Shown in pieces: positions 15,411-33,159 of a stretch of DNA of 64,000 bases. How positions within the stretch are numbered: the stretch's first letter is position 1; each line of letters begins with the position of its first letter. This stretch comes from Candidatus Iainarchaeum sp. GTDB taxonomy: Archaea > Iainarchaeota > Iainarchaeia > Iainarchaeales > CSSED10-239. The notes beneath the pieces were generated by a model. The model saw only the letters and a program-made list of their open reading frames with translations. It had not been told where the DNA came from and ran no database searches. The stretch is taken from the NCBI GenBank assembly GCA_037441475.1, contig JBBISB010000001.1, positions 136,163 through 200,162 on the forward strand, in the 5' to 3' direction. Both the position numbers and the translations under genes were made by a program.

Positions 15411-18400
15411 TTATTTAAATTTATCAGGATTATGCCATAGTAATAACTCTGGGTTATTTCCTGAAATATTGAAACATACATTTCCTGTAGGTATCTCCTT
15501 AAAGACATCATTCATTGTATTGTATGTTAATTTTGGTTCTACATTATTCATTACTAAATTATAGATCATGAAATTATTACTCACTACTGTTTTTGTAAAT
15601 GCAGTTACATTCTTTGTATCTCCATTATTGATTTGTGGATTTGCATACAAAGCAACTTGTAAAGATGTTTTATCTTTAAGTAAGAATAATCTATTCATGT
15701 TGTTTAAAACCTTAAGATCAGTGTTATTGTTTGTTTGAACTATCTTAAAGTTATATGGTTTATTAAAGTAAAATGGTCTTGAGTCTATGAAAGTATAGTT
15801 TGCCATATCCTTAAAGCTAAAGATATATCCATCTTGTATTGTGTCTGTAGATGAATAATCTGTAACATTATAAATTCCACTTAAGAAAGGAGCATTATAT
15901 AATGTATTGCTTTTAGACATAGTATATCTAGGGTTAATTGGCATACTGAATAATATGTTTTTATTATATTCATCAGGAAGTGCCCTTACAAGACTTCTTA
16001 TCTTTATAACAACATTCTTACCAACACCTTGTGAAGCATGTATTAAATAAACACCTGGTTTTGAAACATTCATAGCTCTTTCATAAGTAAATTCATATGT
16101 TTTAACAACAGTACTACTGTTATATGTGTTTAAGATATTAACATTTAATGGATCATTAGTTTGTCCAAACTTCTTCAAGCTTGAAGTAAACACTTGTGGA
16201 GAAGATCCAAAGTAAACTTCCATGTTTGCGTATACTTCTGCTCTTTGGTTATCATTAGAAAATTTATTATGTAAATTATTTAAGAAATACTCAGCAGTGG
16301 TGTATTGATAGTCCCCAATTGTAACTACTGCTAAATAATCTCCGCTTGGATTATATTCAAGACCCTTTGTCTTAATAATGGTTATTTCTCTTAACTCCTG
16401 AGGAATAGAATTAAGTAATTTTACAGCTTCATCAATATAACTTTGAAGAGTCTCTTTTCCTTGCCTATTAAAGTCTTCACAAACATCTCCGTCACCACAG
16501 AAATCAACTTTTATATCTGATCTTTTTATTGTTTGCCAATCTTTTTCAAAGTAGATATCTCCAAGTTTTACATATTTTGAAGTATCTTTTAAACTATCTA
16601 AACCAACTACCTTCTTTTGTAAATAATCATAGAATTGCTCTTGATCACAGTACATGTTATCACAAGAGGTTGCAGTTATCTTTGAAGAATCATACTCAAA
16701 TAAGATTTTATCAAATCCATAATCGTTGTATGCTTCTAAGCCAGTTTGTCCAAGATTTGAAGAAAGGTCAGGAGCTAAACATTTAAGAGCACCAGTAGCT
16801 ATAGTTTCTCCATCAGCAGTTGGTGTTACAGAACCATCAATACTCCTATCACTTACAGCTGTTGAAACACCAATAGAGATATGTGATTCTAATTTTGCTT
16901 TTTGATTCTCACTAGATGCCCAAAGCTCAAATACTTTATTAATATTAGAGGTCTGACCTTCTTTGAAAAGATCATAAATTGTTATCTTACTATTAACAGC
17001 TAAAACATTATTAAATGAATCAACTGGTCTTGTAAAACATAATTTGAAAATATGTCTTGTTGGTTTTAAAAATCTAATACTTACCTTTAATGGATTATAA
17101 GTATCCTTAAGGTAATAAGTACCATTATCATTAATATAAGAGGTATCCTTAATACCGTTTAATGGAAAGTCTTTAACATAACCAAAGAAACATCTAGTAA
17201 CTTCAGTTTCTTGATCCATTCTTTTAAACTTATCAGCAGTCAATTGATTTTCAGGAACATGTATCATAACAGCTTTATTTTCAGAATCTAAGGTGTAAGT
17301 TAACTTAACAGATGTATCAACAAACATCATATCTTCATCAGTTACATTTTCATCAGTAAACTGTTTTATTAAATCCCAGTTATCCTTATTATCTAAGATA
17401 AGCCACTGGAAGTTATCTGTAAGTTGCATACCTACATTATTATAGATTAAAGAGGATTGTCCGTGTGGTGGTTGAAGACCAACTTGAAGCACAAACTTTA
17501 AGTTAACTGTATCCTCTACATCTATTAATATTTTTCTAAAGGATGAAACTATTCCTGCTGCTAAAGAATACTGTGAATATTTATTTAGATATTCCTTTGC
17601 AGAAACTGTGTTTTTAATCTCTGGATTTCTTCTTAATGCAATTTCCCAATATTCAATTGGTTTATTAGTTGTAAGTTCTGTAAAAGTATCCACCTTAATA
17701 GGCTGTATCTTACCTTGCATCTCTCCAACAGTTAAGAAAGAAACACCATCAAAATCAAGATCCATTAAATCAAGATAACTAACTTCAACTAATCTATAAC
17801 CATCAGCAAAGCAAGTGTTCATAACTTTTACCATTTGGTATTTAGGGTCAAGTATATTTGAAAAATCTAATTTTTGAGGAGTTACCTGTATACATTTTGA
17901 AGGCATAAAGCTTATTGGTAAAGTTACTGAAACAGGCACATTTCCTACAAGTCTATAATTTGCTTTATTTACTAAAGATGGCTTAACATTAACAGGTATA
18001 TTGAAAGTACCCATTGACTCTCCACCTAAGATAGTAGTTTCTTTACTTTCACCAGGCTCTAAACTAAACTCTGCATCAGAAGTAATTGTTACACCGTAAG
18101 ATGCATCAAGCTTAATTGTAACACCCTCTAAACAGTTGTTCTTAATATAGAAAGGTCTTACAGGACAGTTCATGTTGTTTGACATACCCATATTACCATA
18201 GTTATCTTGAGGGTAACCTGACATAAAATTATAACTATTATAGTTACCAAAAGTATTTTGATACTGTGCTGTTGGGAAGTTATAAGGGTTAACTGTTGAT
18301 GCTTGAGGACCAGCATAACCAAATTGTCCAACTAAATTGTAATTTGGATTTCTGTACCCTTGTTGTTGAGTAAAGTATCCTTGTCCTGCTTGATATGTAT

Positions 18401-21400
18401 TATGAGGATTAAATTGATTATTCATGTTGTATGGAGTATTAAAGTTATTTCCTCCAAAGTAAGGATTATTGTATCCTGAGGAGAAGTTATTACCACCATA
18501 ATATTGATTATAGTTATTAAATCCTGAAAACCAATTACATGCAAGAGCAGGAACTGGTTGTTTAGGCATTTCTATACATTCAGCATAGTTGTTAACAATA
18601 ACCTCTAATGGAAGTCTTGCCTTAACTTCATCAACACCATTGATATTTCCTTTCTTAGATGTGAAATATATGGTTGGAGTCTTAATATTTGATGCTATTT
18701 TATAAGCTTTAAACTTTAATTGTAAAGTTGATTTTGCATTCTTTAAAAGAGAGGATAATATAGAAACTTCTTTTAAGTCTTCTAAAATATATTCTTTACC
18801 AGAAACAACAATAGATAAAACACCAGCTTCAGATTCATTACCCCAATCTGCCATAGCGTTAATAGATGTTAAATCAATTGCAATTTGTCTTGAGGTACAT
18901 TTATTCTCTACTGTAAAATCAAAAGTAACTGTTTTATCAGCCTCTGTTCTTATGGAAGCTGAACTTGGAAGTACTTTTAAACAATCTAAGGAATCAAGAG
19001 CATTTCCTAAAACAACTCTAACTGTTACTGGTATTGTAACAAGCCATGTCTTATTCATTTCTTCGCTTCTTATCCTGATTGCAACTTCGTTTTTAATAGT
19101 TTGTTGAGTATAAAGATTCATTCCTGCTTCTGTTAATGTAGCAGTTAAGGTTATATCATTTTGAGAGTTTCCATTTATGGTATAATTTTCAATATCTAAA
19201 GCTAACTTTACATATTGATTATCTAAGCTTTGAGATACAGAAACTATAGATAAAGGAACATATGCTTCGTTAAATAAACTAAAGTTATAAACTTCTCTAA
19301 CGTTTACTGATGAGTCTAAAGTTAAAGTTATTTCCTTAGGTATTGCAGTGATTAATTGATCATCAACAACTAAGGAGATGTCTTTCATCCTATATTCATT
19401 CTTTGTAACAATTATTCTAACAACATCCCCTAAGTCAGTTGCTGGAAGAACATAACCATACAAACCTTGTGAGTTTGTAAGAGATACAACTAAAGGATTA
19501 TTGTTTAATAAAATATTAACATTCGCACCATTTACTGGCTTATTACTATGATCAGTAACAGCAATCATTAAATCATTTGCTATAAATGGAATAATTTTTC
19601 TTGGTACCATTTCAACATACATTTCTTTAGCTTCCTTAACATCTATAAAAATGTTTCTTGAAAACACTTCTTGTCCGTTTGAAACTATTGAAATTGTAAT
19701 AACATCAGAAACATCATCAATAACCTTAAAATCAATATCTCCTGAAAGAATATCATTAGAGGTTAAAGATCCAATCTCTATATTTGAAAACTCATTTCCT
19801 CTTAAAAGATTACCTGTAACTGAGTTGATCATGTATTCTTTTAAAACAACTGAGGAACCTGTTGTTATTACCATTGTTGAATTAGGAGCAATCTTTCCTT
19901 CTAAAACATTTAAGTTAAATGAAAGTCTATAATCATTATTAATCTGTGCATTATATCTATCAATTATGTTTCTTGAAAGATTTGTTTGGTTGCTTGTTAT
20001 TGTAAAAGCATAACATAAAAGTGAAGAACATTGGTTCTGTGAACCAGTAAACAACATTGCTTGCTTTGTTTGTGCATATAAATTTTGTTTTGTATTTCCA
20101 GAAGTATAAGAGGTATCAACAGGTGATCTTACTATACTTGTACCCTCATAAAACTCAGCCCTATAGTTTAAAGCTTGGTTTATAAAAGCACTCTCTAAAA
20201 CAACAACATCAGCTTCAATTAAATAACTTCCTTCTAAAGGATTGTTAATGGTTAAGTTAAACCACTTTGCATTTCTTAAAGTCTTGTTTGAAAGATCAGT
20301 TGTTTGTCCTGAACATGGAGTGTATGAAGTTGATCCAATAGTTTCAGACTTAGCGTATCTTACTTCCTTAATAAATAAAGCATCCTCTAAAACAGTATAA
20401 GTGGTTGTACCACATACTGGGTTTGGTGCATTTCCTATTCTTAAGTGTGCTACAACTTTTGAAAACTTTTTAGTAACATTTAATGAATATCTAGCAGTTA
20501 CTTGCATACCTGGAGTTACAGAGTTTATTTTTTCTCCTAAAGCATTATAGAAACCTAAAAACTCAATACCTGATGTTTGTGAAATTCTTGATGGTAAAGT
20601 AAATGAAAGATTAACAATCTCATTTGCATTAATCTCATATCTTGAAGTTATAAATTTAGAATCAAAATTATCAATAACAAAGTATACTTGCTTATCTGCT
20701 CTTATCTTTATTAAAGTAAAACCCTCTGCGTTTGTAGATGTGGTTTTATCTGCTAAGATACTATCGTTTAAAGTATCATAAACATATACGTTTCCTTGGT
20801 AGAAATCCCCAAACTCAGTTTTTAAAGTTAAGTTAAAGGTTCCTTCTCCAATTGTCATCTTTATTACTTGTTCATTTATTTGTTGTTCAACAATTCTAAA
20901 TGGATTTGTAAACTCAGAAGTAAATTGTCCTTTAGATGAATCAAGCTTATATGTTCTACTTATATCTAAGTTTGTTAAAACAGCTTTACCATAAACATCA
21001 GCAGTTATTGTTTGAAGAATAATGTTTTCTTCAGCATCCCATAGTCTAATGGTTGCAAAATCAACTGGTTTAAGTAAATTATCTTGAACTGTTATAACAA
21101 GGCTTCTTAAGTTTTCATTAGTTATTGGGTTTAAAGAGATTTGTTTTACAGAGTCACTTATTCTTAAGTTATTCTCTGTTTTTAAAATATAATTAGGATT
21201 ATTAAAAACAACCTTGTAAGTTATGTTTTCTTCAACACCGAAATTTACAAGACCTTCTTTGTTTGAGATTAATGTTTTTACAAGTGTGCTTGTTTTGTAT
21301 AAAGAAACTGAAACATTTTCAATAGCTTCTTTTGTTTTAGAATCAATTACTTTAAATTTAAGTTGACCAATATATGCCTTTGTTAAAAGAACATCTTTAT

Positions 21401-22376
21401 TTTGAAGAGCTGAATCAACAATTGTTATTTGTATATTTTCAAGTTCTGTTATTGGTCTGTATCTATCATCATTATCATATATAACAACTCTGTATGTTCC
21501 TATTGTTATGTTTTCAAAAAGAACAATACCGTTTGTGTTTGTAGTTGCTTCTCTTACAACTTGACTTTGCATATTAACAATTGAAACACTAACATTTGAA
21601 ATTGGTGTTTTTAAATCATTATCTAAAACTTTAATCGATGCATTACCTGTTTTCTTTTCTGCAAAGCTTAACTCAACATCTCCTGATAAACCATCTTCGT
21701 TTACTGCAACAGAACCAACTGCATTAACTGTGGATGATTCTATTGAAACTTGTAAGTAACCACAATCAGCAGGTATGTCTGTTAAGGTTAAAGAACCGTC
21801 GTTTGTTAAAAGATTATTTTTTCTATAATTACTGTTATTTGAACAAGTGATTGTTGAAACTGTTAAAGGAGAATTATATAGTTCGTTATTTGATTTAAAA
21901 TATATTGTTTTTGAAACTGTACTAACTGTTAATTTAAGATAAACTGGATAGTTATTCTTTTTACTAAAGTTAATAGTTAAAGGAGTCTCTATTTGGTATT
22001 TAGAACTTTTAATACCTAAAGGCATTTCCTCTTTCTTAATACCAGTAACCTCTGCTATTCCTAAAGAGTTTGTTACAAGAAGTTTTGGAGAGTTGTTAAA
22101 TAATATTTCTAAACTCTCATTTGAGATTGGTTTATTTTGGGAGTCTACAAAAGTTAAAGAATAGGTCTGATCAGTAACAACTGAAGATCCAAATAATAAG
22201 AATGCTAAAAATACTATTAATAAAAGTATTATAAGATTGAATAATAGGAAGGTTGGAATTCCGTTCTTTTCTAAAGGATCTACAATTTTATATAAATTGA
22301 TTCCCTTTTTTTCTAATCTATCAAGAAATGCAAAGTATTTCTCTTCTTGCCTGTAGTAAAAAGATTTTAGACCCAT
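15411..22376 (-). CDS. Giant membrane-anchored surface protein (2321 aa) with the same N-terminal anchor module. Contains a ~130-aa N/Q/Y/G-rich low-complexity (prion-like) segment.
   Basis: N-terminus MGLKSFYYRQEEKYFAFLDRLEKKGINLYKIVDPLEKNGIPTFLLFNLIILLLIVFLAFLLF. Internal low-complexity region CNWFSGFNNYNQYYGGNNFSSGYNNPYFGGNNF..QGYRNPNYN..NMNCP at roughly nt 18160-18545. A YCDQEQFYDYL module related to YCDATQ of the paralogs. Confidence 0.85.
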   Translation of the reverse strand: MGLKSFYYRQEEKYFAFLDRLEKKGINLYKIVDPLEKNGIPTFLLFNLIILLLIVFLAFLLFGSSVVTDQTYSLTFVDSQNKPISNESLEILFNNSPKLLVTNSLGIAEVTGIKKEEMPLGIKSSKYQIETPLTINFSKKNNYPVYLKLTVSTVSKTIYFKSNNELYNSPLTVSTITCSNNSNYRKNNLLTNDGSLTLTDIPADCGYLQVSIESSTVNAVGSVAVNEDGLSGDVELSFAEKKTGNASIKVLDNDLKTPISNVSVSIVNMQSQVVREATTNTNGIVLFENITIGTYRVVIYDNDDRYRPITELENIQITIVDSALQNKDVLLTKAYIGQLKFKVIDSKTKEAIENVSVSLYKTSTLVKTLISNKEGLVNFGVEENITYKVVFNNPNYILKTENNLRISDSVKQISLNPITNENLRSLVITVQDNLLKPVDFATIRLWDAEENIILQTITADVYGKAVLTNLDISRTYKLDSSKGQFTSEFTNPFRIVEQQINEQVIKMTIGEGTFNLTLKTEFGDFYQGNVYVYDTLNDSILADKTTSTNAEGFTLIKIRADKQVYFVIDNFDSKFITSRYEINANEIVNLSFTLPSRISQTSGIEFLGFYNALGEKINSVTPGMQVTARYSLNVTKKFSKVVAHLRIGNAPNPVCGTTTYTVLEDALFIKEVRYAKSETIGSTSYTPCSGQTTDLSNKTLRNAKWFNLTINNPLEGSYLIEADVVVLESAFINQALNYRAEFYEGTSIVRSPVDTSYTSGNTKQNLYAQTKQAMLFTGSQNQCSSLLCYAFTITSNQTNLSRNIIDRYNAQINNDYRLSFNLNVLEGKIAPNSTMVITTGSSVVLKEYMINSVTGNLLRGNEFSNIEIGSLTSNDILSGDIDFKVIDDVSDVITISIVSNGQEVFSRNIFIDVKEAKEMYVEMVPRKIIPFIANDLMIAVTDHSNKPVNGANVNILLNNNPLVVSLTNSQGLYGYVLPATDLGDVVRIIVTKNEYRMKDISLVVDDQLITAIPKEITLTLDSSVNVREVYNFSLFNEAYVPLSIVSVSQSLDNQYVKLALDIENYTINGNSQNDITLTATLTEAGMNLYTQQTIKNEVAIRIRSEEMNKTWLVTIPVTVRVVLGNALDSLDCLKVLPSSASIRTEADKTVTFDFTVENKCTSRQIAIDLTSINAMADWGNESEAGVLSIVVSGKEYILEDLKEVSILSSLLKNAKSTLQLKFKAYKIASNIKTPTIYFTSKKGNINGVDEVKARLPLEVIVNNYAECIEMPKQPVPALACNWFSGFNNYNQYYGGNNFSSGYNNPYFGGNNFNTPYNMNNQFNPHNTYQAGQGYFTQQQGYRNPNYNLVGQFGYAGPQASTVNPYNFPTAQYQNTFGNYNSYNFMSGYPQDNYGNMGMSNNMNCPVRPFYIKNNCLEGVTIKLDASYGVTITSDAEFSLEPGESKETTILGGESMGTFNIPVNVKPSLVNKANYRLVGNVPVSVTLPISFMPSKCIQVTPQKLDFSNILDPKYQMVKVMNTCFADGYRLVEVSYLDLMDLDFDGVSFLTVGEMQGKIQPIKVDTFTELTTNKPIEYWEIALRRNPEIKNTVSAKEYLNKYSQYSLAAGIVSSFRKILIDVEDTVNLKFVLQVGLQPPHGQSSLIYNNVGMQLTDNFQWLILDNKDNWDLIKQFTDENVTDEDMMFVDTSVKLTYTLDSENKAVMIHVPENQLTADKFKRMDQETEVTRCFFGYVKDFPLNGIKDTSYINDNGTYYLKDTYNPLKVSIRFLKPTRHIFKLCFTRPVDSFNNVLAVNSKITIYDLFKEGQTSNINKVFELWASSENQKAKLESHISIGVSTAVSDRSIDGSVTPTADGETIATGALKCLAPDLSSNLGQTGLEAYNDYGFDKILFEYDSSKITATSCDNMYCDQEQFYDYLQKKVVGLDSLKDTSKYVKLGDIYFEKDWQTIKRSDIKVDFCGDGDVCEDFNRQGKETLQSYIDEAVKLLNSIPQELREITIIKTKGLEYNPSGDYLAVVTIGDYQYTTAEYFLNNLHNKFSNDNQRAEVYANMEVYFGSSPQVFTSSLKKFGQTNDPLNVNILNTYNSSTVVKTYEFTYERAMNVSKPGVYLIHASQGVGKNVVIKIRSLVRALPDEYNKNILFSMPINPRYTMSKSNTLYNAPFLSGIYNVTDYSSTDTIQDGYIFSFKDMANYTFIDSRPFYFNKPYNFKIVQTNNNTDLKVLNNMNRLFLLKDKTSLQVALYANPQINNGDTKNVTAFTKTVVSNNFMIYNLVMNNVEPKLTYNTMNDVFKEIPTGNVCFNISGNNPELLLWHNPDKFK

Positions 22377-22580
22377 AATTTATCTCTCATATATATATAT
22401 TAATATATTTTTGCAGCATAATCCTTTAAAAGCTATGCTATTTAGTAAATATTAATTGTCCTTATATATTTAAATACCTTTTTATTCACCATAAAAAGTT
22501 AATATTTTTTAAATTTTAGTAAAATTACCTATTTTTTATAAATTTTCCTTATATTGTTCAAGCTTTTAAAGTTTTTTTCT

Positions 22581-24257
22581 TTATTGAGCAACACACCCTG
22601 CTGTCCCTGGTAACCCTGCTTCGTAACTTTTACATCTCCATCCTGATGTCAGAGGATTATTTAAAATTACTTGGTTTTGAAAATATCCTGGGGTTCCAAA
22701 GCTAAATGTTTGAGAAGGATTAAAAAAAGAATAACTTGCATAATCATCTTCTAATTGCACATAGATATTTTTATAATCTTCTGCAAGGATATATCTTTCA
22801 TCCTGGTCTTCAAATTTAAATAAAATATTTATTTTTTCTATTTTGCTACACTTTAAATTAAAATTTTTATTATCTTGAGAAATATTAGTAGGGTCTCTTA
22901 AAATAAAAATATTATTATCATTATTTAAAGAAAGTCCAATATTTGAAGCTTTATTATATTGTAATGGATTAAAAATTACAGGTGTTATTGATGAGTCCCC
23001 TTGAATACCTCCAGCAGAAGGTTCTGATAAAACCTCTTTTGTGACTTTTGAAACATCAATTACACTTACATTACAGATATTTAAACCATTTTGTGAAACA
23101 ACAGAGTTTCTACACACCCCAATACCATCATTTACTGATTTAAGGTTATTTCCTGCATAGATTTGTACTGGTGTTCTTGCAGAAACATTATTTTTAATAG
23201 TTGTCTTAACAAGATCTTCAAAAACAGGTTTTAAATTTTCTGATGTTTGAAGAGAATAACTATTATTTCCTGAAAGATTAATATTTGTACCAACTACAGT
23301 ATACCCTCCGCCGTTGTTTGCCTTAACTCCTGAAACTGATGTTGGTTTTGTACAAACATCCGAAAAATAATTTTTATTAGTAGTAATAAAAAGATCTTCT
23401 CTTAACCCACAACTATCAATATCACAAACCCCAAGCTTTGCACTGTTTAAAGTGTAATGGATGTATGGGTTAAAGAAACCTTGAGAGGTTGAAGAACGAT
23501 TTAATATTTCACTTTGATCTTTTTTTTCGAGCTCAGCATCAAGAGCAAAGTTTCTAACAGTCCTCATAGCTTGAAACCCTCTCCAAGGAATATATATCTT
23601 ATACTCTCTTCTTGCAAAAACTGGTCTTTGAATAACCTCATCATTTTGATTTCTTTTAACAACAATCATTGGAAGTTTTTCATAGTCCTCTGCAGATAAG
23701 TTTCTAGTGTCTATTGTAAAATATAAAGTTCCTAAACAATTTACACTATTCTGCTCACAATCAACAACTTTTAACTTATTATCTCCTGCTGCAACAAAAG
23801 AAGCTTTAATAATTCTAGATAATTCTATTTTATCATAATCAGGAACTTGAATACCATACCCTATAGGTGGGTTTGTATATAATAAACTACTTATAACGTT
23901 TTGTGCAAAGAAATTTTCAAATTGATTATCAAAAAAAATATCATCTGCATAATATTTTACAAAACTATCCCAATCAAGCATCACTTGTTCTCTTTGAATT
24001 TTAATTTGATTATCAGGGTTACTTCTAAACTTTATCCATTGTTCTCTAAAAGAAACAACAAAGTTATTAAAAGCATCAGCTCTTGAAATATCTGCAATAG
24101 TAATTAGATCAGAAGTTCTTGATTGATCATCAATTAAGGATAAATAGTTTTCTTCGGTCTGTACCATGTTATATACAAAAACAATTGTTATGGAAAGTAG
24201 CATTAAAGAGATTAATGCTGTAAAAAGATTAAATCCTTTTTTGTTTTTTATAAACAT
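22581..24257 (-). CDS. Prepilin-like protein (558 aa) with a class III (type IV pilin-type) signal peptide, embedded in the giant-protein cluster.
   Basis: N-terminus MFIKNKKG|FNLFTALISLMLLSITIVFVYNMV: short basic leader, Gly, then a ~22-aa hydrophobic helix, matching the archaeal PibD/FlaK and bacterial prepilin peptidase substrate pattern. The rest is a large Cys-containing globular region. ATG start. Flanked by 204-nt and 257-nt intergenic spacers. Confidence 0.6.
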   Translation of the reverse strand: MFIKNKKGFNLFTALISLMLLSITIVFVYNMVQTEENYLSLIDDQSRTSDLITIADISRADAFNNFVVSFREQWIKFRSNPDNQIKIQREQVMLDWDSFVKYYADDIFFDNQFENFFAQNVISSLLYTNPPIGYGIQVPDYDKIELSRIIKASFVAAGDNKLKVVDCEQNSVNCLGTLYFTIDTRNLSAEDYEKLPMIVVKRNQNDEVIQRPVFARREYKIYIPWRGFQAMRTVRNFALDAELEKKDQSEILNRSSTSQGFFNPYIHYTLNSAKLGVCDIDSCGLREDLFITTNKNYFSDVCTKPTSVSGVKANNGGGYTVVGTNINLSGNNSYSLQTSENLKPVFEDLVKTTIKNNVSARTPVQIYAGNNLKSVNDGIGVCRNSVVSQNGLNICNVSVIDVSKVTKEVLSEPSAGGIQGDSSITPVIFNPLQYNKASNIGLSLNNDNNIFILRDPTNISQDNKNFNLKCSKIEKINILFKFEDQDERYILAEDYKNIYVQLEDDYASYSFFNPSQTFSFGTPGYFQNQVILNNPLTSGWRCKSYEAGLPGTAGCVAQ

Positions 24258-24514
24258 TTTTTTTCATTACCAGTATTTTTTTATATTTTTCAAAATAAAA
24301 ATATTTTTCTTTTAAAAAAATAAAAATTATTCTTTTAAAAAATATTTTAAAAGTTAAATAACATTCTAAAAGAAAAATATTATTATTCTTAATATAATAT
24401 ATTAATATTTTTTATATTAAATACTATTATTAGAAGATGTTTATATTTTTATATATTTCTGTTTTATAAAAAAAATAAAAAAAGAAGAGAAAAAGAAATA
24501 TTTTCCCTATATTC

Positions 24515-27500
24515 TTAATTTGCTTTAACAGGGTCAATACATTTGTCAACTCTTAAAACATCTGTTAAAGCTATTATTGAAGGAGCTTGAGAGTTGTAAG
24601 GTCTTACATCAACAATATATCTTGACTTATACTCTTGTGAACTTTCAGGAGCAAGATAATCTACCTCTGTTATATAGAAGATATTCTTTTCAAAGACAAT
24701 AGGTGTTTTAATCTCAATTGAGCTATTAAGACCAGTCATACCTTTATCTCTTAAACCATTAATACCAACTATGTTACCCGCAATTCCACAACCAAGTCCT
24801 CTTAAAAATCCACCAGCACCTCTAACCCACTTTAGTTTACTTGAAGCAGTTGGTACTTTTGAACCGCTTATCTTTGTAAAGTCATCTATAACTTCGTCAG
24901 GAACTAAATAATTTCCAGCACCATCAGGAGCTAAACTACTTATCTTAATACTCATTGCTTCTAATGAAGCTTTTTGTGCTTTTGCATCAGCTAGTTTAGT
25001 TTTTAATGAAGCTAAGTCTGATGATGCTTTTCTAGATGCTCTGTCCACAGCAGTAATTTTATTAGGGTCTGATTTTACTTTTTTAGGATTAAAAGAAGAT
25101 CTTGCATTATTTTTTTCAAGATCAGTAATCTTTCTTTCTAAAACTTTAATTGAGTCATCTGCTTCTTTTATTAAACCTTTCTTAGAATCACCTATTGTGT
25201 CTAAAAGATTATTTAGTGAAGCGTCATCAATTACATTAACTGTACTTGTAGTTGTTGTTCCAGGTCCAGCTCCTGCTGCAACACTTCTGTCATAACCTTG
25301 TAACTTAGATAAATAGCCATTATTTTTGGTTAGACTATTAACTGCATCAACTTGACTTAAATGTCCTGATGGATAAACTCCAGAATGAGGAAATTGACTT
25401 CTTGAAACAACTTGTAATAAATCATCTAATTGAGCACTAGTTATTTTTGAATAATTAATTTTTGCGTTTGCACCACTTCCTGATATTACATCTGGATTAT
25501 TCATCAAAGCCTCAATTACATTATCTGCTATTCCAGTAGTATTAGTAAAGGATGTCGGAACTTGATTAAAATATATTCCTGCTGATTGAACATTATTTAC
25601 TGTAACCATTTGAGGGGATGAAAGATAATTATTTGAAATAACTTTAATATAATCATCTAAAAAATTTATTGCCTTTTCAGAAGGTGCTCTAGGTCTTACT
25701 AAATTAGGGGTTGTTCCAGGTGTTGTAGTTGTTACTGTTTGAGATACAAAAGGATCATCACCTAAACTTATTGTTGCCTCTCCAAGATTTAATGGAGTTG
25801 CAGCAGCAGAAGATCCTGCCTTAAAAGAACCTGCCATTACAGATCCAACAATTCCTGTAAACCACTCTTCAACCTCTCCAAACAAAGGACCTAAAAACTT
25901 AAGTTCAGGTTCATTAAATAACCATCCTAAAAACTTATCAATAAGCCATCCTAAACCGCCCTCTCCACCTGTTAAAGCAGATGCAAAGATTTGAAGAGCA
26001 GGAAGACCACATGAAAAGCCTAAACAATCAATTCCAATACCTGCAATAGATACTGGCATTAAAACTGCTGACAAACCATAACAACCAGCACAAGTTGCAG
26101 AACATCTTAAGAAATACTGTCCAGCATTGTTTAAGCCTTTATTTATTTTCGAGGTTGTCTTTTGTTCAGGGTCCTTTAAATCACAACCAAGTTGTTCATA
26201 GTTATAAAAGAAATCTCCATTATACTTTCCAGAGTCCATAACCTTTTGTAAAGTAGAACACATCTCTTCTTTTTCAGCAGCATTATACTCTTTCTTCCAA
26301 TCAACTAAGGCAGTGATGTTAAGAGGAAGATTTTTATCTTCATCTTTTTTATTATTCTCTAAAAGAATATTATTATAAACTTCTAAAAGATATTCAGAAG
26401 GAGTTATAGCACATGAAGCTAAAGTAACCTCTGCAATTGCACTCCTGTTACCAATAGTACCATCAGAAGAATAAATACTTGTAGCTGTAACAGTTGCTTT
26501 TTGACCAACCAAAGTATTCATTTCAGAGGGTGTTAATGGAGTTACACACATAAAAAAATTATTATCTTGGTTTTGAAGAACAGAAAGGCTAAGAGGCTCT
26601 TGAACACCATCATCTTTATTTTTCTTAAAACCAATAGTGCCACCAGGAACTTGTGTTGATGAAATTTTTAAAGTCTCATCCATTGATGATTTTATTTTCA
26701 TTAAAGTACAAGAAGATGTTTCTTGTAAAGTTAAAGAAACTTCCTTTTCAGTAAAAGCTAAATCTCCAGCCTTAACTAAATCAAGGATAAGCATATATGT
26801 TTGATCTTTAGAAACACAAACCTTTGCACTATAATCGTTCTTTGTTATCATTGAGCTTATAACATTTACAAACTCTCTTCTTACCTTGTCAGGAGTTAAG
26901 CCATCTGCTGTTTGATATTGACTATTAAGAAGAACATTTATTTGTTCAGGGTTTGCTTTTTCATAAACTTGTTTATCATTAAAAGATATTTTTGCAAGAG
27001 CATTTTTATTTTCAGAAATAACACCTGAAGAAACATTTAAGGTACTGTTTCTTGTAGATAAAACATCTCTATTGTAAACATATCTTAAATCTACTTGATC
27101 TGTCTTAAACTTACCTACACCCTTGATTAAGTCTTTTGAAATATTTTCATCACCAGTAAACAAAGTAAGCCATGTTCCTTGTCTATTGTTTTTATCTAAA
27201 GTTAAATCCCATGGAAGGAAGTTTAAATAATTCATTATCTTTTTATCACAGTGAGAAGTTTTTTCATACTTTAAAACATTTATGAAATAATATGCTCTCT
27301 CTGGATAAATATAATCAGGAGAAGCTGCTATAAAACCATCAAGCTCAATTGTGTACTTACCACAACCACTCAATTGATTTGAAACAAACACTTTATTTCC
27401 ACCAGCATAAACACCTAAAGAAGTATTCCCTGCACTATTAAATGGATTTGTTTCAACAAAGTAATTTTTAAAACCATAATTTGATTTTGAAAGAATAGCT

Positions 27501-30500
27501 CTTACAAGCTCAGTAGAGACTACATCATTTTGCATATAGAAAGTAAACTCAATTGGCTCAACATCTCCACCAAGCTCTGATATCTTACAATACCCTCTTG
27601 CAGCATCAACTAGAGGACATCCTGTGTTCATTGTCTTTGCTTGTGCTTGAGAAGACATTTGTTTTATTTGGTTTTGAAGTTCACTTACCTTCTTTAAAAT
27701 ATACTCTGTTGAAGAAACAGCATCACAGTAACCTGATTCTTCAGAACATGCACCAATTGAGATTAAAGGTCTACTTAAGGTTGTTGTTTCTTTTAAGTCT
27801 TCACAAACTGGAAGAGAAGAATTTATTGTAACAATATTATCTTTAGCTTGATCTTCAAAGACATCTTTGATATTTATAGAAACTGTAAAGTCCTCTGAAG
27901 TTACAGGATTACCAGAGTTAAGTAATCTTCCTATTATTACCATTGGCATTTTAGGAGAGCCACCTAAAGAGCTTGCTGTAAGCTCTAAGCTATAGGTTGC
28001 TGATTGATTAGGGTATATTAAATTATTACCAGAGGTTGGAATTATTCTAAAAGGATTAGCACCAAAAGTCTCTGTATAACCATCTTGTTTTTTATCAATA
28101 CCAACAACAGAAACTGGTTCTGCACAGTAGTTTGTTAAGGTAATGTTTCTTGCTCTCTTTTCTCCAACCTTTAAAGTATAATCTAAATTTTTATTACTTA
28201 CCTTCAAACAGTTAGGAGAGGAGATTGTAAAAATAATCTGGGTGGTTGCTGTTATTGGGTTATTAATACCAGCAGCTTTTCCAGTAACTAAAATAAATGC
28301 ATTATCAGCAGTTGATTTATTTATATTAACTGTAAACTGTAAATCAATAGGTATTGATGCACCAGGCTCTAAAACAGATACCTCTCTAGGATATTCTTTA
28401 ATACCTATGTTTGAAGATACCATCTTAGGATATTGACTTATCTGTATATCTGTTATTGGAACTGTTCCTATATTTTTAATCATGAACCTTGTTGCATTAA
28501 CAGCAGATTGCTGAGGATGAAGTTGTGAGATTGGAACCTGTATTAATGTAGGCATTATCCATAAAGCCTTACTTAGATCTAAAAGATCAACATTTAAAGT
28601 TGATGGGGAAACAGAGTATAAGCTGTTATGCCATAGGATATTATAAGTAAATTTTCTTTGTTGTTTAAGGTTTGATTTATTTTTAATAATAACATCATAA
28701 ACCTTCTCTTCTCCTGGAAGAACAGTTACATGAGCAAGGGAAAGCTCTAAACCATTGTTTGAAGCTGAGGAGGTTAACACTGATTGTGGAGTAAAGGTTA
28801 TAGCTTGTGAACAGTTGTTTTTAATAATAAAGAAAGTAGTATTTTCTGTACTCTCTGTTGTTGAATCTACTTTTGAAGAATAGTAGGTATAATAGTTAGG
28901 ATCTGTATAGTTTACAGTATTCCTTGAAGAAGAATAATTTTGAGTATAGTTTTGAGATGCTAAATAATCTGAGTAATTGGAGTAGGTTTGAGAAGGTGCA
29001 AGTAAAAGATTACTTCTTTGTGTATTTCCAGCATAATTGTAGTTTGTGAAAGGAGTGTTATACACATTTGGTGCAGTATACTTAAGGTTTAAACCTACAA
29101 AGGAGTTAACTGCATTTGGAGTTATCTCAATACAGTCGCTAACCAAAAGACCTTTGTTTATCCTAATAGGGACAATCTTTGTAATCTCTCTAGGACCAAT
29201 GGTTGCATAGATAGGAACATTTGCAAATGCTGTTTCAAACAATATATCTTTTGATACAGTGATTACAACCTCGTAGTTTTGAGAGGAATTTTTATTAATA
29301 AAAGGATTACCTCTAATATCTATAAAGATTTTATCAGATCCATCAACCCAGACTGGTTCTCCAAACCTGATGTTAGTTGCTTGGTAAACACCGTTGTTTT
29401 GTAAAGTAAATCTTGAAGAGGAGGTTATCTGGTCAAGACCAAGATTGATTAATACCTCAGGAGGTGTTAATGTTAATAAAGAATCATCAACTATGAAAAT
29501 TTGTTTTTTATAAGGAACATAACCATAACTTTCAACTAAGACGTTTACAGAGGAGACATTAAATTTATTTTCAATAGTATAGTTTCCATTTCTACCATTA
29601 CTTCCCTCTCCCTTAACTGAGGAAATAAAGGCTCCTCTATCATCATAGAAAGAGATGAATGCATTTTCAATAGGTTTTAAAGAAACTGAATCAATAACCT
29701 CTATATTAAACTTAGAACCGTATGAAACAAAGATATCAGGTGTAAAAATAACCTTCATTTCTTTTTTATCAAAAACATTAAAGCTTAGTCTATCATTAAA
29801 GACTTGAGAACCTAAGATAGCATCTGTTCCCTTAAGATCAATGTATGCTGTTCCTATCTCCTTTGAAATAAATGTTAAATAAATTTTCTTTAAACTGTTT
29901 TGGTTTATTGAAAGATTATCCCTTACTGCTTCAAAGTTTGAAGAATCATAAGTTGTGCTTTGGTTATTTAGAGTATCTGTAAAAAGATTAAAGGAGATTA
30001 AAGGAAAGCTCTTTGAAGTTTCAGCTAAAAGATTTAACTGTGAGTTTTTTAAAGAATAGATGCTTGTTTCAAGAGAGTAGTTTTCTCCTTTAATAGCATA
30101 AAAGTCTTCAATATTAAACTCATTATCTTTTGAGTCAATTATCTTATAAGAAACACAAACATCACCAGAACAATTTAAAGGAACATTGAAAAGATCAATT
30201 GAAACTTCTTTTGTTTGTGCATAAAGAGCTCCCTTAAGATTATTTGAATAGTTTTGTTTTAAAGTTGTATCAATAGGATCTCTATAGTAAAGTTTATTTT
30301 CTTCAATCAATGCCCTGTACTTAAAGATTAGTTTTGTAACAGACATATCAACTGCATTAACCTTAACCTTTATTTGTTTGTTTCCTAAAGGAACATCTGA
30401 AGCCCATTTAAGCTCAAGCCATTTATTTATTATCTGTGAAGAACCTTCATTAAGAGAGTCAATACCTTGCATTCCCGGGGCAGGCTCACTATTATAAGTT

Positions 30501-32605
30501 GTCCCATATTTAAAGTTAGTTATGTCCATTGCAGAGAAACCAGTAATACCGTAACTCATTAGTTCTGAATCTGTTTGAGTATCATCACCAGCTCTGATAT
30601 GCACTTCTCCTTTATATGTTTTTTCAGGGAAAAGAACATCAAAAACTAAATAGTATTCTTTGTCTGTTGTTAAGTAGTTTGTTTTAATACCTTTAGAGTC
30701 AACCACACCTGCAAACTCAATTACAGGGTAATCAGAGTAGTTAACTTGTTTGTTTAAATCAAGTCTTAAGTAACCACCATTATCTGCTTGGTCTGCTGAA
30801 AAGTTAATAACAGATTTATTTCCATTCTCGTCTGTATATTCAGCAATTAAGTCCTTGTAACCTTCTGTGTTAAATATTATTTCTTCACCTAAAGAAATAT
30901 TTCCATCAAAAAGAACAGTTCCATCTTTTGTTCTTATTAAAAGATTTCCTGAAGTTATTTTCATTCCGTTTTCATCATAAAAATCAAGTTTTATCATTTT
31001 TGAAGCATTATCAACAACAAAGATGATTTTATTTTCTCTTAAAGGATTTATTTTTATATTTTCAAAAACTTCTGTTTCTCCAACCATGGCATAAACCCTG
31101 TAGTCCTTGTTTACTCTTAAAGGTAAAGCAAAAGAACCTGTTATGTCTGTTTGAAGAGAGGTGTTGTAAGGAACTTCTACTTCTGTTTCTGGATTGAAGT
31201 TTATAAGTTCATAGATTTTTAAAAAAGCTTTTGTTACTGGAAGATTTTTTTCATCAACAACAAAGATATTAAGTATTGCACTATTTGAAACATCTATTCT
31301 TTCTAAGATAAACTCAGCTTTTGTTGTTTGTCGTAAATCTACTGTTTGATTTTCACAAAAATAATCTACTTTACATGCTGTTATTAAGATTGGTTTTTCA
31401 GAGGTTATTCCTTTAAAGCTTATTTGACCTAAAGCATCTGTTTTTCCAGAATCAATAACTGTGTTATCTTTATTATATAATGTTATTAAAACATCCTCTA
31501 AAGAAAAGAAATTTGTTTTTGATTTAGTTGAAATATCAATAAAGTTTCCACCAAGCTCTAAGACAACAATAAATGTTTCTTCAGAGTTGATTATTCTTAA
31601 GGAAATGTTTTCATCACTTATAGCTGTTCTGTAACCTTCCTTTTTAACCCTGTAAGAGATTGTTTCTCCAGTGTCTATGTATGCTAAGGCCTTACCATCT
31701 ATTGTTTTTTGATTTGCAACCTCTTCTCCACCTAAATTAAAGATTAAAACTTCTGCATTATCAATTACTTTTTGAGAAGTGTCTAAGACAACAAAGGTAA
31801 CTATGCTTTTTCCTTCAAAGGAAAGTGAAGAGATATCCATCTCAATAACTTTCTCTTGTTCTTTTGAAGTTATTCTATAGTTTGTTTCTCTATAGTCTTC
31901 ATAACCATCTGCCTTTATTAAAATTTCTAAATCTTTGTTTAAAGGTACTTCTAAGGTTATAAAATGATTTTGATATTGATTTACAATTCCTTCTTTACTT
32001 TCTTGTCTATTGTTAATAGAGAAGTTAACTTTTGCAGAGCCTGCAGGAATTGTTTTTCTATTTTCTCTATCTATTAGTTTAATTTTTAAAACTCCATACT
32101 CTATTGATTCTGTAAAAACAATTGAGATGTTTTGTTTCTTCTCTGTAATGGTTATAACTTTTGTAAAGTCAGGGTGTCCTGCTTTTGTTGAATAAAAGGT
32201 ATATGATTCTCCTAACTTAAGTTTTATTTTTTTAGAAAAACCATTTTCAATAGTTCCTTTAAAAACATCTTTATCTTTGCTTGATATTTTTAAGTAAACA
32301 TCAGATAATGAGTTTCCTTGATAATCAGTAACTGAAAAAGTCAAGGTTGATTGGTTTGAGAAAGAAAAGAAAATTAAAAAGATTATTATGAAAAGTAATA
32401 ATAGTAAAATAGATGCAACAATTGCAAAGGCAGGTAAACCTTTTTCTTCTAAGTAATTATTAAAATCGTTTAGAGGGATTCCTTTTTCTGAAAGCCAGTT
32501 TGAGGTGCTTGCATATTTATCTTCAAGATAATTATAGACCCTTGAGAAAATATTTTGTGAACTGCTTTCTTCTGATGACGCCATATTTTTCTTTTCTTTA
32601 ACCAT
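24515..32605 (-). CDS. Giant membrane-anchored surface protein (2696 aa) and first gene of the cluster. The C-terminal ~600 aa combine glycine-zipper-like hydrophobic segments with a coiled coil.
   Basis: N-terminus ..FSRVYNYLEDKYASTSNWLSEKGIPLNDFNNYLEEKGLPAFAIVASILLLLLFIIIFLIFF (conserved motif plus TM). Ectodomain of carboxypeptidase-regulatory-like beta repeats and Y/N-rich stretches. C-terminal region has CSATCAGCYGLSAVLMPVSIAGIGIDCLGFSCGLPALQIFASALTGGEGGLGWLIDKFLGWLF, a heptad-like stretch IKEADDSIKVLERKITDLEKNN..LASLKTKLADAKAQKASLEAM, and WVRGAGGFLRGLGCGIAGNIVGINGL. Confidence 0.85.
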   Translation of the reverse strand: MVKEKKNMASSEESSSQNIFSRVYNYLEDKYASTSNWLSEKGIPLNDFNNYLEEKGLPAFAIVASILLLLLFIIIFLIFFSFSNQSTLTFSVTDYQGNSLSDVYLKISSKDKDVFKGTIENGFSKKIKLKLGESYTFYSTKAGHPDFTKVITITEKKQNISIVFTESIEYGVLKIKLIDRENRKTIPAGSAKVNFSINNRQESKEGIVNQYQNHFITLEVPLNKDLEILIKADGYEDYRETNYRITSKEQEKVIEMDISSLSFEGKSIVTFVVLDTSQKVIDNAEVLIFNLGGEEVANQKTIDGKALAYIDTGETISYRVKKEGYRTAISDENISLRIINSEETFIVVLELGGNFIDISTKSKTNFFSLEDVLITLYNKDNTVIDSGKTDALGQISFKGITSEKPILITACKVDYFCENQTVDLRQTTKAEFILERIDVSNSAILNIFVVDEKNLPVTKAFLKIYELINFNPETEVEVPYNTSLQTDITGSFALPLRVNKDYRVYAMVGETEVFENIKINPLRENKIIFVVDNASKMIKLDFYDENGMKITSGNLLIRTKDGTVLFDGNISLGEEIIFNTEGYKDLIAEYTDENGNKSVINFSADQADNGGYLRLDLNKQVNYSDYPVIEFAGVVDSKGIKTNYLTTDKEYYLVFDVLFPEKTYKGEVHIRAGDDTQTDSELMSYGITGFSAMDITNFKYGTTYNSEPAPGMQGIDSLNEGSSQIINKWLELKWASDVPLGNKQIKVKVNAVDMSVTKLIFKYRALIEENKLYYRDPIDTTLKQNYSNNLKGALYAQTKEVSIDLFNVPLNCSGDVCVSYKIIDSKDNEFNIEDFYAIKGENYSLETSIYSLKNSQLNLLAETSKSFPLISFNLFTDTLNNQSTTYDSSNFEAVRDNLSINQNSLKKIYLTFISKEIGTAYIDLKGTDAILGSQVFNDRLSFNVFDKKEMKVIFTPDIFVSYGSKFNIEVIDSVSLKPIENAFISFYDDRGAFISSVKGEGSNGRNGNYTIENKFNVSSVNVLVESYGYVPYKKQIFIVDDSLLTLTPPEVLINLGLDQITSSSRFTLQNNGVYQATNIRFGEPVWVDGSDKIFIDIRGNPFINKNSSQNYEVVITVSKDILFETAFANVPIYATIGPREITKIVPIRINKGLLVSDCIEITPNAVNSFVGLNLKYTAPNVYNTPFTNYNYAGNTQRSNLLLAPSQTYSNYSDYLASQNYTQNYSSSRNTVNYTDPNYYTYYSSKVDSTTESTENTTFFIIKNNCSQAITFTPQSVLTSSASNNGLELSLAHVTVLPGEEKVYDVIIKNKSNLKQQRKFTYNILWHNSLYSVSPSTLNVDLLDLSKALWIMPTLIQVPISQLHPQQSAVNATRFMIKNIGTVPITDIQISQYPKMVSSNIGIKEYPREVSVLEPGASIPIDLQFTVNINKSTADNAFILVTGKAAGINNPITATTQIIFTISSPNCLKVSNKNLDYTLKVGEKRARNITLTNYCAEPVSVVGIDKKQDGYTETFGANPFRIIPTSGNNLIYPNQSATYSLELTASSLGGSPKMPMVIIGRLLNSGNPVTSEDFTVSINIKDVFEDQAKDNIVTINSSLPVCEDLKETTTLSRPLISIGACSEESGYCDAVSSTEYILKKVSELQNQIKQMSSQAQAKTMNTGCPLVDAARGYCKISELGGDVEPIEFTFYMQNDVVSTELVRAILSKSNYGFKNYFVETNPFNSAGNTSLGVYAGGNKVFVSNQLSGCGKYTIELDGFIAASPDYIYPERAYYFINVLKYEKTSHCDKKIMNYLNFLPWDLTLDKNNRQGTWLTLFTGDENISKDLIKGVGKFKTDQVDLRYVYNRDVLSTRNSTLNVSSGVISENKNALAKISFNDKQVYEKANPEQINVLLNSQYQTADGLTPDKVRREFVNVISSMITKNDYSAKVCVSKDQTYMLILDLVKAGDLAFTEKEVSLTLQETSSCTLMKIKSSMDETLKISSTQVPGGTIGFKKNKDDGVQEPLSLSVLQNQDNNFFMCVTPLTPSEMNTLVGQKATVTATSIYSSDGTIGNRSAIAEVTLASCAITPSEYLLEVYNNILLENNKKDEDKNLPLNITALVDWKKEYNAAEKEEMCSTLQKVMDSGKYNGDFFYNYEQLGCDLKDPEQKTTSKINKGLNNAGQYFLRCSATCAGCYGLSAVLMPVSIAGIGIDCLGFSCGLPALQIFASALTGGEGGLGWLIDKFLGWLFNEPELKFLGPLFGEVEEWFTGIVGSVMAGSFKAGSSAAATPLNLGEATISLGDDPFVSQTVTTTTPGTTPNLVRPRAPSEKAINFLDDYIKVISNNYLSSPQMVTVNNVQSAGIYFNQVPTSFTNTTGIADNVIEALMNNPDVISGSGANAKINYSKITSAQLDDLLQVVSRSQFPHSGVYPSGHLSQVDAVNSLTKNNGYLSKLQGYDRSVAAGAGPGTTTTSTVNVIDDASLNNLLDTIGDSKKGLIKEADDSIKVLERKITDLEKNNARSSFNPKKVKSDPNKITAVDRASRKASSDLASLKTKLADAKAQKASLEAMSIKISSLAPDGAGNYLVPDEVIDDFTKISGSKVPTASSKLKWVRGAGGFLRGLGCGIAGNIVGINGLRDKGMTGLNSSIEIKTPIVFEKNIFYITEVDYLAPESSQEYKSRYIVDVRPYNSQAPSIIALTDVLRVDKCIDPVKAN

Positions 32606-32823: not shown

Positions 32824-33159
32824 TTATTTAGAGTTTGAAACTCTAATAATTGCAACTATTGAAACAATTAATGCTGCTGGTGCTACAAAGTAAACAAGGT
32901 TTACTAAGATCCCTCTTAAGACATCTCCCACAACAGGAATTGCATTAATTGAGTTACTGGTTGCTATAAATGTTATTGAGGCTATTAAGAAAAGAGAGAT
33001 ATTTCTATCTTCAATGTTTAAAAGACCAATAACAAGACCTAATACTATTAAAACAGTTGAAAGCCATACAGGGTGACTTATACCATAGATAAGTCCAAAA
33101 ATAATTGAAAGTAAGATACCACCAAGGAAAGCAAAAGCTCCTATTTTTTCAAGTTTCAT
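32824..33159 (-). CDS. Small integral membrane protein (111 aa, 3-4 TM)
   Basis: Hydrophobic throughout (FAFLGGILLSIIFGLIYG.., VLIVLGLVIGLL.., AALIVSIVAIIRV). No recognisable family. Confidence 0.5.
   Translation of the reverse strand: MKLEKIGAFAFLGGILLSIIFGLIYGISHPVWLSTVLIVLGLVIGLLNIEDRNISLFLIASITFIATSNSINAIPVVGDVLRGILVNLVYFVAPAALIVSIVAIIRVSNSK

Follow-up and report, generated by a model that had tools for sequence, protein, structure and literature searches.

DPANN archaea are thought to live attached to other cells, and the molecules through which they make contact are largely unknown. In this work we analysed a gene for a prepilin-like protein of 558 amino acids (aa) in 64,000 nucleotides of a Candidatus Iainarchaeum sp. 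genome (contig JBBISB010000001.1, positions 136,163 to 200,162; hereafter the window, with positions counted from its first letter), where the gene lies within a cluster encoding giant proteins. The closest described cluster is that of Candidatus (Ca.) Forterrea multitransposorum, for which the original paper reports five proteins, each membrane-anchored and longer than 1,800 aa, within 42 kb and proposes that the giant-protein complex mediates cell-cell contact (PMC5905446). The text searched makes no mention of a 559-aa pilin-like gene in the cluster or of prepilin processing.

A type IV pilin-like protein is defined by a short leader ending in Gly (Gly or Ala in archaea) and about 21 hydrophobic residues (PMC4471445). 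Large or modular minor pilins are widespread in bacteria, among them ComZ and GspK, in which an extra domain is inserted in the pilin sheet (PMC8179133; PMC4858521), and a model of GspIJK as a tip is summarised in PMC4471445. Large archaeal proteins with class III signals include the binding proteins of the bindosome and the arCOG02911 minor pilins of 250-550 aa (10.64898/2026.04.22.720090; PMC4858521; PMC4471445). The 558-aa protein represents a new protein family with a known kind of N-terminal signal in an unusual conserved context.

A family-wide class III-like N-terminus

The prepilin-like gene occupies 22581..24257 on the minus strand (as do all parts of it given below), running from an ATG start through 558 codons to a stop codon at 22581-22583 in the list of open reading frames (ORFs) and their translations. 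A first-pass annotation of the window had both the ORF and its N-terminus exactly right and omitted only the strand. An identical protein, P0001, is encoded on NCBI contig CAZGHU010000001.1. The N-terminus reads MFIKNKKGFNLFTALISLMLLSITIVFVYNMVQTEE and divides into a putative leader peptide of residues 1-8 (MFIKNKKG; 24234..24257), with a predicted cut after Gly8 between nt 24234 and 24233, and a hydrophobic stretch of residues 9-32 (FNLFTALISLMLLSITIVFVYNMV; 24162..24233) that is predicted to be helical and that corresponds to the N-terminal part of pilin helix α1 (α1-N). Because the first charged residue past F9 is E35, 26 uncharged residues follow the putative cleavage site. Position +5 is occupied by Thr and not by Glu.

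A word-indexed search returned 36 relatives of ~480-610 aa. An exhaustive profile search extended the family to at least 217 representative clusters (50% identity) at E ≤ 1e-3, with 186 at E ≤ 1e-10; its members span 333-792 aa and have a common core at profile positions 4-242. In their source records they appear as 'hypothetical protein' of Candidatus Diapherotrites archaeon, Candidatus Iainarchaeum, 'Candidatus ainarchaeum sp.' or 'archaeon'. The family has been unannotated until now and is DPANN-restricted. The complete genome of Ca. Forterrea multitransposorum (CP045477.1) encodes an orthologue of 559 aa at 56% identity.

The motif [KR][GA]F[TNS][LM]F[TS] is present in 147 of 179 collected family sequences, and the 32 that lack it are mostly gene calls starting at an internal Met, fragments at contig ends or near variants. 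Among the 147, position -2 is Lys (93) or Arg (52) in 145, position -1 is exclusively Gly (109) or Ala (38), and position +1 is Phe in every case. Family leaders are mostly 4-15 aa long, that is, short and ending in Gly or Ala. The uncharged run that starts at F+1 is 26 residues long in 94 and 24 in 38 of the 143 full-length members (132/143 together), so that the ~21 hydrophobic residues of a pilin-like protein do follow the putative cut site and lead into a predicted long α1 helix. Thr or Ser stands at +5 family-wide, and the Glu typical of this position in type IV pilin-like proteins is absent.

In an alignment of 31 family sequences, residues 1-60 are the best-conserved part (block conservation 0.74-0.78 against a mean of 0.50), with M31, E35, S49, D50, T53, D61 and R71 invariant. 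Conservation is lowest, at 0.28-0.46, in blocks 301-480, and block 261-280 reaches 0.73. Since α1-N of type IV pilins is both peptidase substrate and assembly interface (PMC4471445), a conserved N-terminus is the pattern expected for pilins. Such strong conservation is the opposite of what is usual for ordinary signal peptides or anchors.

The 64-kb window was scanned in six frames for ORFs of at least 50 aa having, within the first 32 aa, [KR][GA] followed by 20 residues at least 60% apolar, the first 18 of them without charge, His or Pro. The target and one other ORF (81 aa, 41175-41420, minus strand) were the only two that passed, which argues that a class III-like start is not common background in this AT-rich genome. 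The 81-aa ORF begins at an internal ATG of a listed TTG ORF and starts MPNNRQKG/MVLISVATIAIFIFTNIFFV, where the slash marks the would-be cut. It has a Cys-rich tail (CGDLDCNYAIGETPLNCPEDCYLG), adjoins a LemA gene and gave no family match.

Resemblance to bacterial-type prepilins

A set of 57 diverse family N-termini of 41 aa each was scanned against all 18,950 NCBIfam models. ComGF was matched by 50 of them (best E 9.5e-5), ComGE by 24, ComGD by 20 and ComGC by 10, with further matches to PilV (7), XpsI (6), GspG (5) and GspH (4); those matches with coordinates shown cover the first 28-49 model positions. The hydrophobic stretch itself aligns with positions 1 to ~30 of the ComGF, ComGE, ComGD, GspG and PilV models, and Pfam N_methyl was matched by 9/57. 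The N-terminal fragment of the 558-aa protein also matched ComGE and ComGF in NCBIfam, below threshold, at 15.4 bits.

Two controls bear on these matches. Reversed N-termini, which keep the composition and the hydrophobic run, gave no pilin match in 57 sequences, and the transmembrane (TM) anchors of the neighbouring giant proteins in the same genomes gave two in 47. The resemblance to prepilins is therefore weak per sequence yet specific and order-dependent. In sequence, the family N-terminus resembles bacterial-type GFTL prepilins, as represented by the ComGF, ComGE, GspG and PilV models. The class III-like N-terminus that the first-pass annotation had seen in a single protein is thus a property of the family, borne out by the conserved putative cut site, the pilin-model matches and both controls. 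The same annotation had called the pattern archaeal. This holds for the missing Glu at +5 and the Gly or Ala at -1, but the sequence as a whole resembles GFTL prepilins of the bacterial type, and no model of an archaeal pilin or archaellin was matched. We consider it likely that the 558-aa protein has a class III-type N-terminus.

A predicted helical stalk with an α/β head

AlphaFold2, run on the family alignment, gave a model with a predicted local distance difference test (pLDDT) score of 84.9 and a predicted template modelling (pTM) score of 0.81, in which residues 8-78 form a single unbroken helix. A second model, of residues 1-245 (pLDDT 84.7, helix at 11-78), agrees with the full one. 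In the full model the helix is followed by an α/β head to residue ~240, a poorly conserved middle region at ~300-465, a β-hairpin at 469-505 and a terminal hairpin that contains the invariant W540, C542 and C555; strands are placed at 469-483, 497-505, 541-545 and 554-557.

On the gene, the exposed extension of the predicted α1 helix (residues 33-78, QTEENYLSLIDDQS...FVVSFREQWIKFR), which is highly conserved, maps to 24024..24161. The conserved head (residues 79-245; 23523..24023), with a C167/C174 pair and a YIPWRGFQA motif, is the core of the wider family. The less conserved middle region (residues 246-465; 22863..23522) contains a conserved stretch at 261-300 with C278/C283 and falls to its minimum from ~301; family members of 333-400 aa seem, from unaligned reading of their sequences, to be without most of it. 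The remaining part, at 22584..22862, holds the C-terminal β-hairpin (F482, E484, Y489) and the terminal W540-x-C542...C555 loop, whose columns are invariant in the 31-sequence alignment. By a strict pattern, 64 of the 143 full-length members show the hairpin motif and 71 the W-x-C...C tail.

The protein had been described as Cys-rich. It does have 10 Cys (1.8%, against 0.8-1.0% in the giants), and the enrichment is modest. In the 31-sequence alignment seven of the Cys never vary and an eighth reaches at least 90% conservation, a pattern that fits an extracellular protein. Together with the predicted topology, the conserved Cys would place the mature protein outside the cell.

The predicted long α1 helix fits a pilin. 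The modelled head is not callable as a pilin fold at present. Foldseek searches of the full model against the Protein Data Bank (PDB) and viral structures, and of residues 1-245 against the PDB, returned no match with E < 0.2, and an hmmsearch of the family profile against PDB sequences returned nothing relevant.

Conserved placement between giant proteins

Immediately upstream of the prepilin-like gene lies giant A (2,696 aa; 24515..32605, minus strand), which has a cytoplasmic N-terminal segment, one TM helix and immunoglobulin (Ig)-like repeats and matches Pfam CarboxypepD_reg and bMG3. Immediately downstream lies giant B (2,321 aa; 15411..22376, minus strand), which matches CarboxypepD_reg, SdrD_B, SpaA and bMG3. 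Overall, the giants of the cluster carry the Ig-like Pfam domains CarboxypepD_reg, Big_1 and bMG3.

Synteny was read in 23 of 27 related loci, with neighbourhoods of up to 10 kb per side. Wherever the contig was long enough, the gene was preceded by an ORF of 2,362-3,116 aa and followed by one of 2,188-2,719 aa, with a further giant next. This arrangement holds down to family member P0173, at E ~1e-22 against the profile, and the Forterrea orthologue is flanked by ORFs of 2,671 and 2,323 aa. The prepilin-like gene is single-copy in the cluster. Its neighbours across the 23 loci are the giants, a 111-aa membrane protein, a small protein with weak winged-helix matches, LemA, NurA and similar genes. 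We considered whether the gene might derive from a virus or mobile element and rejected this, given that there was no viral structural match and that the gene is syntenic across lineages.

The first-pass annotation had placed the gene between giants with a separate upstream spacer. The placement stands and proves to be deeply conserved across loci, and the AT-rich spacer of 257 nt is where it was said to be (24258..24514, minus strand). In 11 related loci the length of the upstream spacer has a median of 75 nt and a range of 40-658. Because the length is not conserved, the 257 nt say little about independent expression, and we rejected the spacer as a sign of an independent promoter. The downstream spacer (204 nt; 22377..22580, minus strand) is fairly steady in length among relatives, at 111-209 nt with a median of 171 in the 11 loci. 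A conserved promoter or RNA element serving giant B could lie within this steady interval and its equivalents.

A proposed minor-pilin-like adaptor and its alternatives

Our preferred reading, which we hold with modest confidence, is that the 558-aa protein serves the giant-protein surface complex, at low copy number, as a minor-pilin-like adaptor or organiser. A minor-pilin-like partner is preferred over a fibre-forming pilin because the gene is single-copy, is wedged between giants and has no small major pilin or assembly gene beside it. By analogy with known type IV pilins, the basic leader MFIKNKKG would stay cytoplasmic as the 24-26-residue hydrophobic helix inserts through the Sec/signal recognition particle (SRP) route. 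A PibD/FlaK-type aspartyl peptidase encoded elsewhere in the genome would then cut after Gly8 and leave Phe9 as the new N-terminus; on balance we lean towards such cleavage. The hydrophobic helix would next either keep the mature protein in the membrane or lift it out. Beyond the membrane, α1 would extend as a conserved exposed stalk of ~45 residues bearing the α/β head, the variable middle and the C-terminal hairpin, whose two conserved Cys probably form a disulfide. Like GspK, ComZ, CofB or modular pilins, the protein might then work as an adaptor, an organiser or a cap. We give a physical partnership with the giants an even chance. The roles suggested in the first-pass annotation, a pilus-tip or adhesin-type subunit or a stalk onto which the giants assemble, are hypothetical.

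A number of results weigh against this proposal. Neither an A24 peptidase nor a FlaI/PilB ATPase nor FlaJ/PilC was found in ~84 kb (the window plus 10 kb at each edge) or in the 23 related loci (up to 10 kb per side). The whole 558-aa protein has no Pfam or NCBIfam match, and its N-terminal fragment has no Pfam pilin match. None of the curated pilin models reaches its cut-off: the N_methyl model (PF07963) scores 14.8 bits in relatives against a required 21.2 (for a KGFTLF relative), and ComGF scores at best 23.4 bits in relatives against 80. Models of archaeal pilins, archaellins and Class_IIIsignal do not match the family N-termini, and a profile of the N-terminus found no pilin among PDB sequences. 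By the FlaFind rule ([KRDE][GA][ALIFQMVED][ILMVTAS]x3 near the N-terminus, plus a TM helix), KGFNLF would probably fail at +2 (Asn) and the commoner KGFTLF at +4 (Phe). Searched against the PDB, neither the whole model nor residues 1-245 has a similar solved structure (best E 0.55-0.8), and the pseudopilins XcpK and XcpW appear at the non-significant ranks of 6 (E = 1.6) and 26. Lastly, the only link between the protein and the giants is synteny.

Type IV filament proteins are typically encoded beside an assembly ATPase, a platform protein and other pilins, and the 23 loci do not show this arrangement. A search seeded with Methanococcus maripaludis FlaK (sequence as in 3S0X) gave matches in Methanococcales only and is uninformative for this genome. 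When small pilins were sought with a profile of the N-terminus alone, just seven sequences came back, all of them short fragments of the same family, and the search is for that reason silent on a major pilin. Type IV pili have been reported for reference genomes of Diapherotrites (PMC8561730).

One distant locus, L006, is the only one with small pilin-like ORFs upstream of giant A. Three ORFs stand there, at 17-463, 588-1187 and 1202-1834: two are pilin-like, of 148 aa (MQKG/YFWPF...) and 199 aa (MMNSKG/QAFSTFQLLISAII...), and the third encodes a 210-aa membrane protein with a weak Exosortase_EpsH match. The KGQ start of the 199-aa ORF resembles EppA substrates.

The main rival to a processed, minor-pilin-like adaptor is an uncleaved N-terminal signal anchor, which would make the product a type II membrane protein whose helix packs against the TM helices of the giants and whose likeness to prepilins is convergent. 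Such intramembrane partnering is plausible because the giants are themselves N-terminally anchored and have a conserved juxtamembrane motif. The absence of prepilin peptidase and pilus machinery from the ~84 kb and from beside the gene in the 23 related loci also suits an anchor, as do the sub-threshold scores of every match to a pilin hidden Markov model (HMM) and a head without a pilin-like structural match. A plain anchor, however, needs only hydrophobicity and flanking positive charge, whereas Gly or Ala at -1 and Phe at +1 are kept over 147 sequences down to ~25-30% identity, as a prepilin peptidase site requires (PMC4471445). The dependence of the pilin likeness on residue order, and its near absence from the giants' own anchors, likewise argue against an anchor, and we regard it as rather unlikely. 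Ordinary secretion through Sec, with removal of a signal peptide by signal peptidase I on the outer membrane face, would start from a similar basic n-region and hydrophobic stretch, and other proteins of the cluster (964, 405, 125 and 816 aa) do carry Sec-type signals. Here the stretch of 24-26 residues is about twice a normal h-region and continues into a predicted 70-residue helix, no small-x-small motif was seen past it, and no part of the protein is better conserved than the N-terminus, the reverse of usual class I signal peptides; this explanation is scarcely to be credited.

The protein could instead be the tip or initiator minor pilin of a type IV-like fibre, with ATPase and platform encoded elsewhere, that shows or recruits the giants at the fibre end, much as PilY1 is presented by minor pilins of bacteria. 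This is a more specific version of the adaptor proposal; the two overlap, and their probabilities are not to be added. The class III-like N-terminus and long α1 helix agree with a tip pilin, and the missing Glu5 parallels GspK, a tip pseudopilin that Korotkov and Hol are said to have described in 2008 as lacking this residue. Low conservation of the middle region agrees with an exposed position. Tips are also the presumed place of modular pilins (PMC8179133), and the Forterrea paper notes a secretion-related ATPase (PMC5905446). Glu5 is, however, commonly absent from archaeal pilins anyway, and the cluster showed no major pilin sharing this N-terminus, although the profile search for one was uninformative. 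Moreover, the giants have membrane anchors of their own and so need no fibre to stay on the cell. We think a tip pilin unlikely. The least probable of the explanations we weighed is a bindosome-type substrate-binding protein, like the sugar-binding proteins of Sulfolobus. Class III signals on non-pilus proteins of 500-600 aa are indeed reported to be widespread in archaea (10.64898/2026.04.22.720090; PMC4471445), but the 558-aa protein has no Pfam or NCBIfam substrate-binding domain and no structural match to binding proteins, and its neighbours are always giant Ig-repeat proteins, with no ATP-binding cassette (ABC) transporter genes adjacent.

The rest of the cluster and its surroundings

Beyond giant B, and on the minus strand like the other genes of the cluster, the window holds giant C (1,704 aa; 10256..15370), which takes the third large-gene position in every locus that extends far enough, a 964-aa secreted protein with a Sec-type signal peptide (7328..10222) and another giant of 2,426 aa (30..7310). 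The cluster runs on past the window edge with genes for proteins of 125, 816 and 2,129 aa. In that region past the left edge (L008, 17352-27281), the 125-aa and 816-aa proteins are Cys-rich and have Sec-type signals; the N-terminal region of the 2,129-aa giant is long and charged, and genes for two small polytopic membrane proteins are found there as well. In one lineage only, ORFs of 92 and 117 aa stand between giant A and the prepilin-like gene (L007, 9336-9964). The two overlap by 4 nt, which suggests that a small module of two genes, perhaps for a toxin and its antitoxin, landed in the cluster.

Giants A-C (24515-32605, 15411-22376 and 10256-15370) and their orthologues in L001-L028 have a conserved cytoplasmic N-terminal segment of 45-110 aa before the single TM helix. 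Its motif reads Y-x-x-[LM]-E-[DE]-[KR]-[YW]-[YF], followed at the start of the TM helix by KGI-x-L-[YN]-K-[IL]-[VI]-D-P-[LF]-E-K-x-G-I-P-[TS]-F. The segment matched no Pfam family at E ≤ 1 and could be a docking peptide for a cytoplasmic partner. The KG[IL]P-x-F at the TM start raised the idea that the giants are themselves prepilin-like. We rejected it: the Gly is not conserved in giants B and C of distant loci, Pro stands at +2, 45-110 residues separate the motif from the N-terminus, and the anchors all but fail to match pilin models (2/47).

The cluster is headed by a gene for a polytopic membrane protein of 111 aa (32824..33159, minus strand), with orthologues in L001, L004 and L009-L011; it often takes this position, and a protein of ~150 aa is found just upstream in some loci. 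In the window the latter is a 153-aa protein (33588..34049, minus strand) whose C-terminal part is winged-helix-like, with weak matches to DNA-binding domains below curated cut-offs. An orthologue was read in L004, and ORFs of 154 aa occupy the equivalent position in L009 and L010, as judged by size and position only. These features suggest a possible regulator.

The window has a G+C content of ~29%, and its archaeal genes include NurA, an XPD-type helicase, phosphoenolpyruvate (PEP) synthase and an intein-bearing HerA/DUF87-type ATPase. The last of these (840 aa; 51521-54043, plus strand) is interrupted by an intein with a LAGLIDADG endonuclease, and is directly preceded by the gene for a 224-aa polytopic membrane protein without a family match (50843-51517, plus strand); the NurA gene, at 36915-37988, lies 14 kb away from it. 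About 3 kb past the right window edge, a RuBisCO large-subunit gene (L029, 6095-7552) adjoins HSP20 and a phage-type integrase, matching the nucleotide-salvage RuBisCO reported for the related Ca. Forterrea.

Significance and comparison with known systems

The giant-protein cluster makes up ~5% of the Ca. Forterrea genome, and the conserved prepilin-like protein is an obligatory member of it across a broad DPANN group of the Diapherotrites/Iainarchaeota type. As a component of a candidate apparatus that these cells may use to hold other cells, it offers a small, tractable handle on an otherwise unwieldy giant-protein system. Its N-terminus predicts a specific processing event, and an obvious candidate for the surface that meets the giants is the conserved stalk helix. 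The family extends the set of archaeal class III-signal proteins by a bacterial-looking GFTL-type N-terminus and a head of unrecognised fold. A bolder and quite improbable idea is that the protein and the giants form a new kind of DPANN attachment organelle, in which the prepilin-type helix would nucleate or cap a short type IV-like stalk, or a helical bundle free of ATPase, that brings the giants' N-terminal anchors together and extends them toward a host cell, with the giants' cytoplasmic N-terminal motif as a docking site for machinery. If true, such an organelle would be a pilin-based scaffold for multi-megadalton adhesins, without a described counterpart.

Among ComGF, ComGE and ComGD (NF041002, NF041013 and NF040982) and N_methyl, which are the best sub-threshold matches, the likeness covers residues ~3-45, that is, K-G-F-T-L and the hydrophobic helix. 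These matches score 14-23 bits against cut-offs of 21-80 and extend over the first 28-49 model positions only, where coordinates are shown. In contrast to the Com proteins, +5 is Thr instead of Glu, and the remainder of the 558-aa protein is unrelated and makes it four to five times longer.

The Sulfolobus bindosome proteins and the arCOG02911-type pilins resemble it in being archaeal, 250-600 aa long and marked by Gly or Ala at -1, often with no Glu5, and they rely on a PibD whose gene lies elsewhere. They differ in that neither a binding-protein fold nor an Ig-like all-β fold was seen here, nor a match to an archaeal pilin HMM, and the genomic partners of the present gene are giant Ig-repeat proteins rather than transporters or pilus genes. 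GspK/PilX-like tip pilins have a pilin module without Glu5 and with a large domain inserted in the β-sheet, and form a tip complex with two or three small minor pilins. In the present family Glu5 is absent and a poorly conserved middle separates head and hairpin; the cluster in the window has no partner minor pilins, and the XcpK match is non-significant at E = 1.6.

The modular minor pilins, namely GspK of the type II secretion system (T2SS), ComZ of Thermus, CofB of enterotoxigenic Escherichia coli (ETEC) and TcpB of Vibrio, and PilB and PilC of Streptococcus sanguinis, are alike in combining a class III-type signal with a long α1 that bears a bulky part. They are low-copy accessory subunits and not fibre builders, which we count as a further likeness to the proposed role of the prepilin-like protein. 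The layouts are comparable as well: GspK and ComZ insert a domain within the pilin module, and here a poorly conserved middle lies between a conserved head and a C-terminal hairpin that part of the family conserves. The absence of Glu5 is also common to GspK and the family. Unlike these pilins, the family is archaeal (DPANN), is not encoded with pilus or secretion machinery and has a head without detectable similarity to their solved structures; its genes are instead embedded in a giant-protein operon. The same cluster, conserved, forms the giant-protein region that Probst and Banfield (2018) described in Ca. Forterrea multitransposorum.

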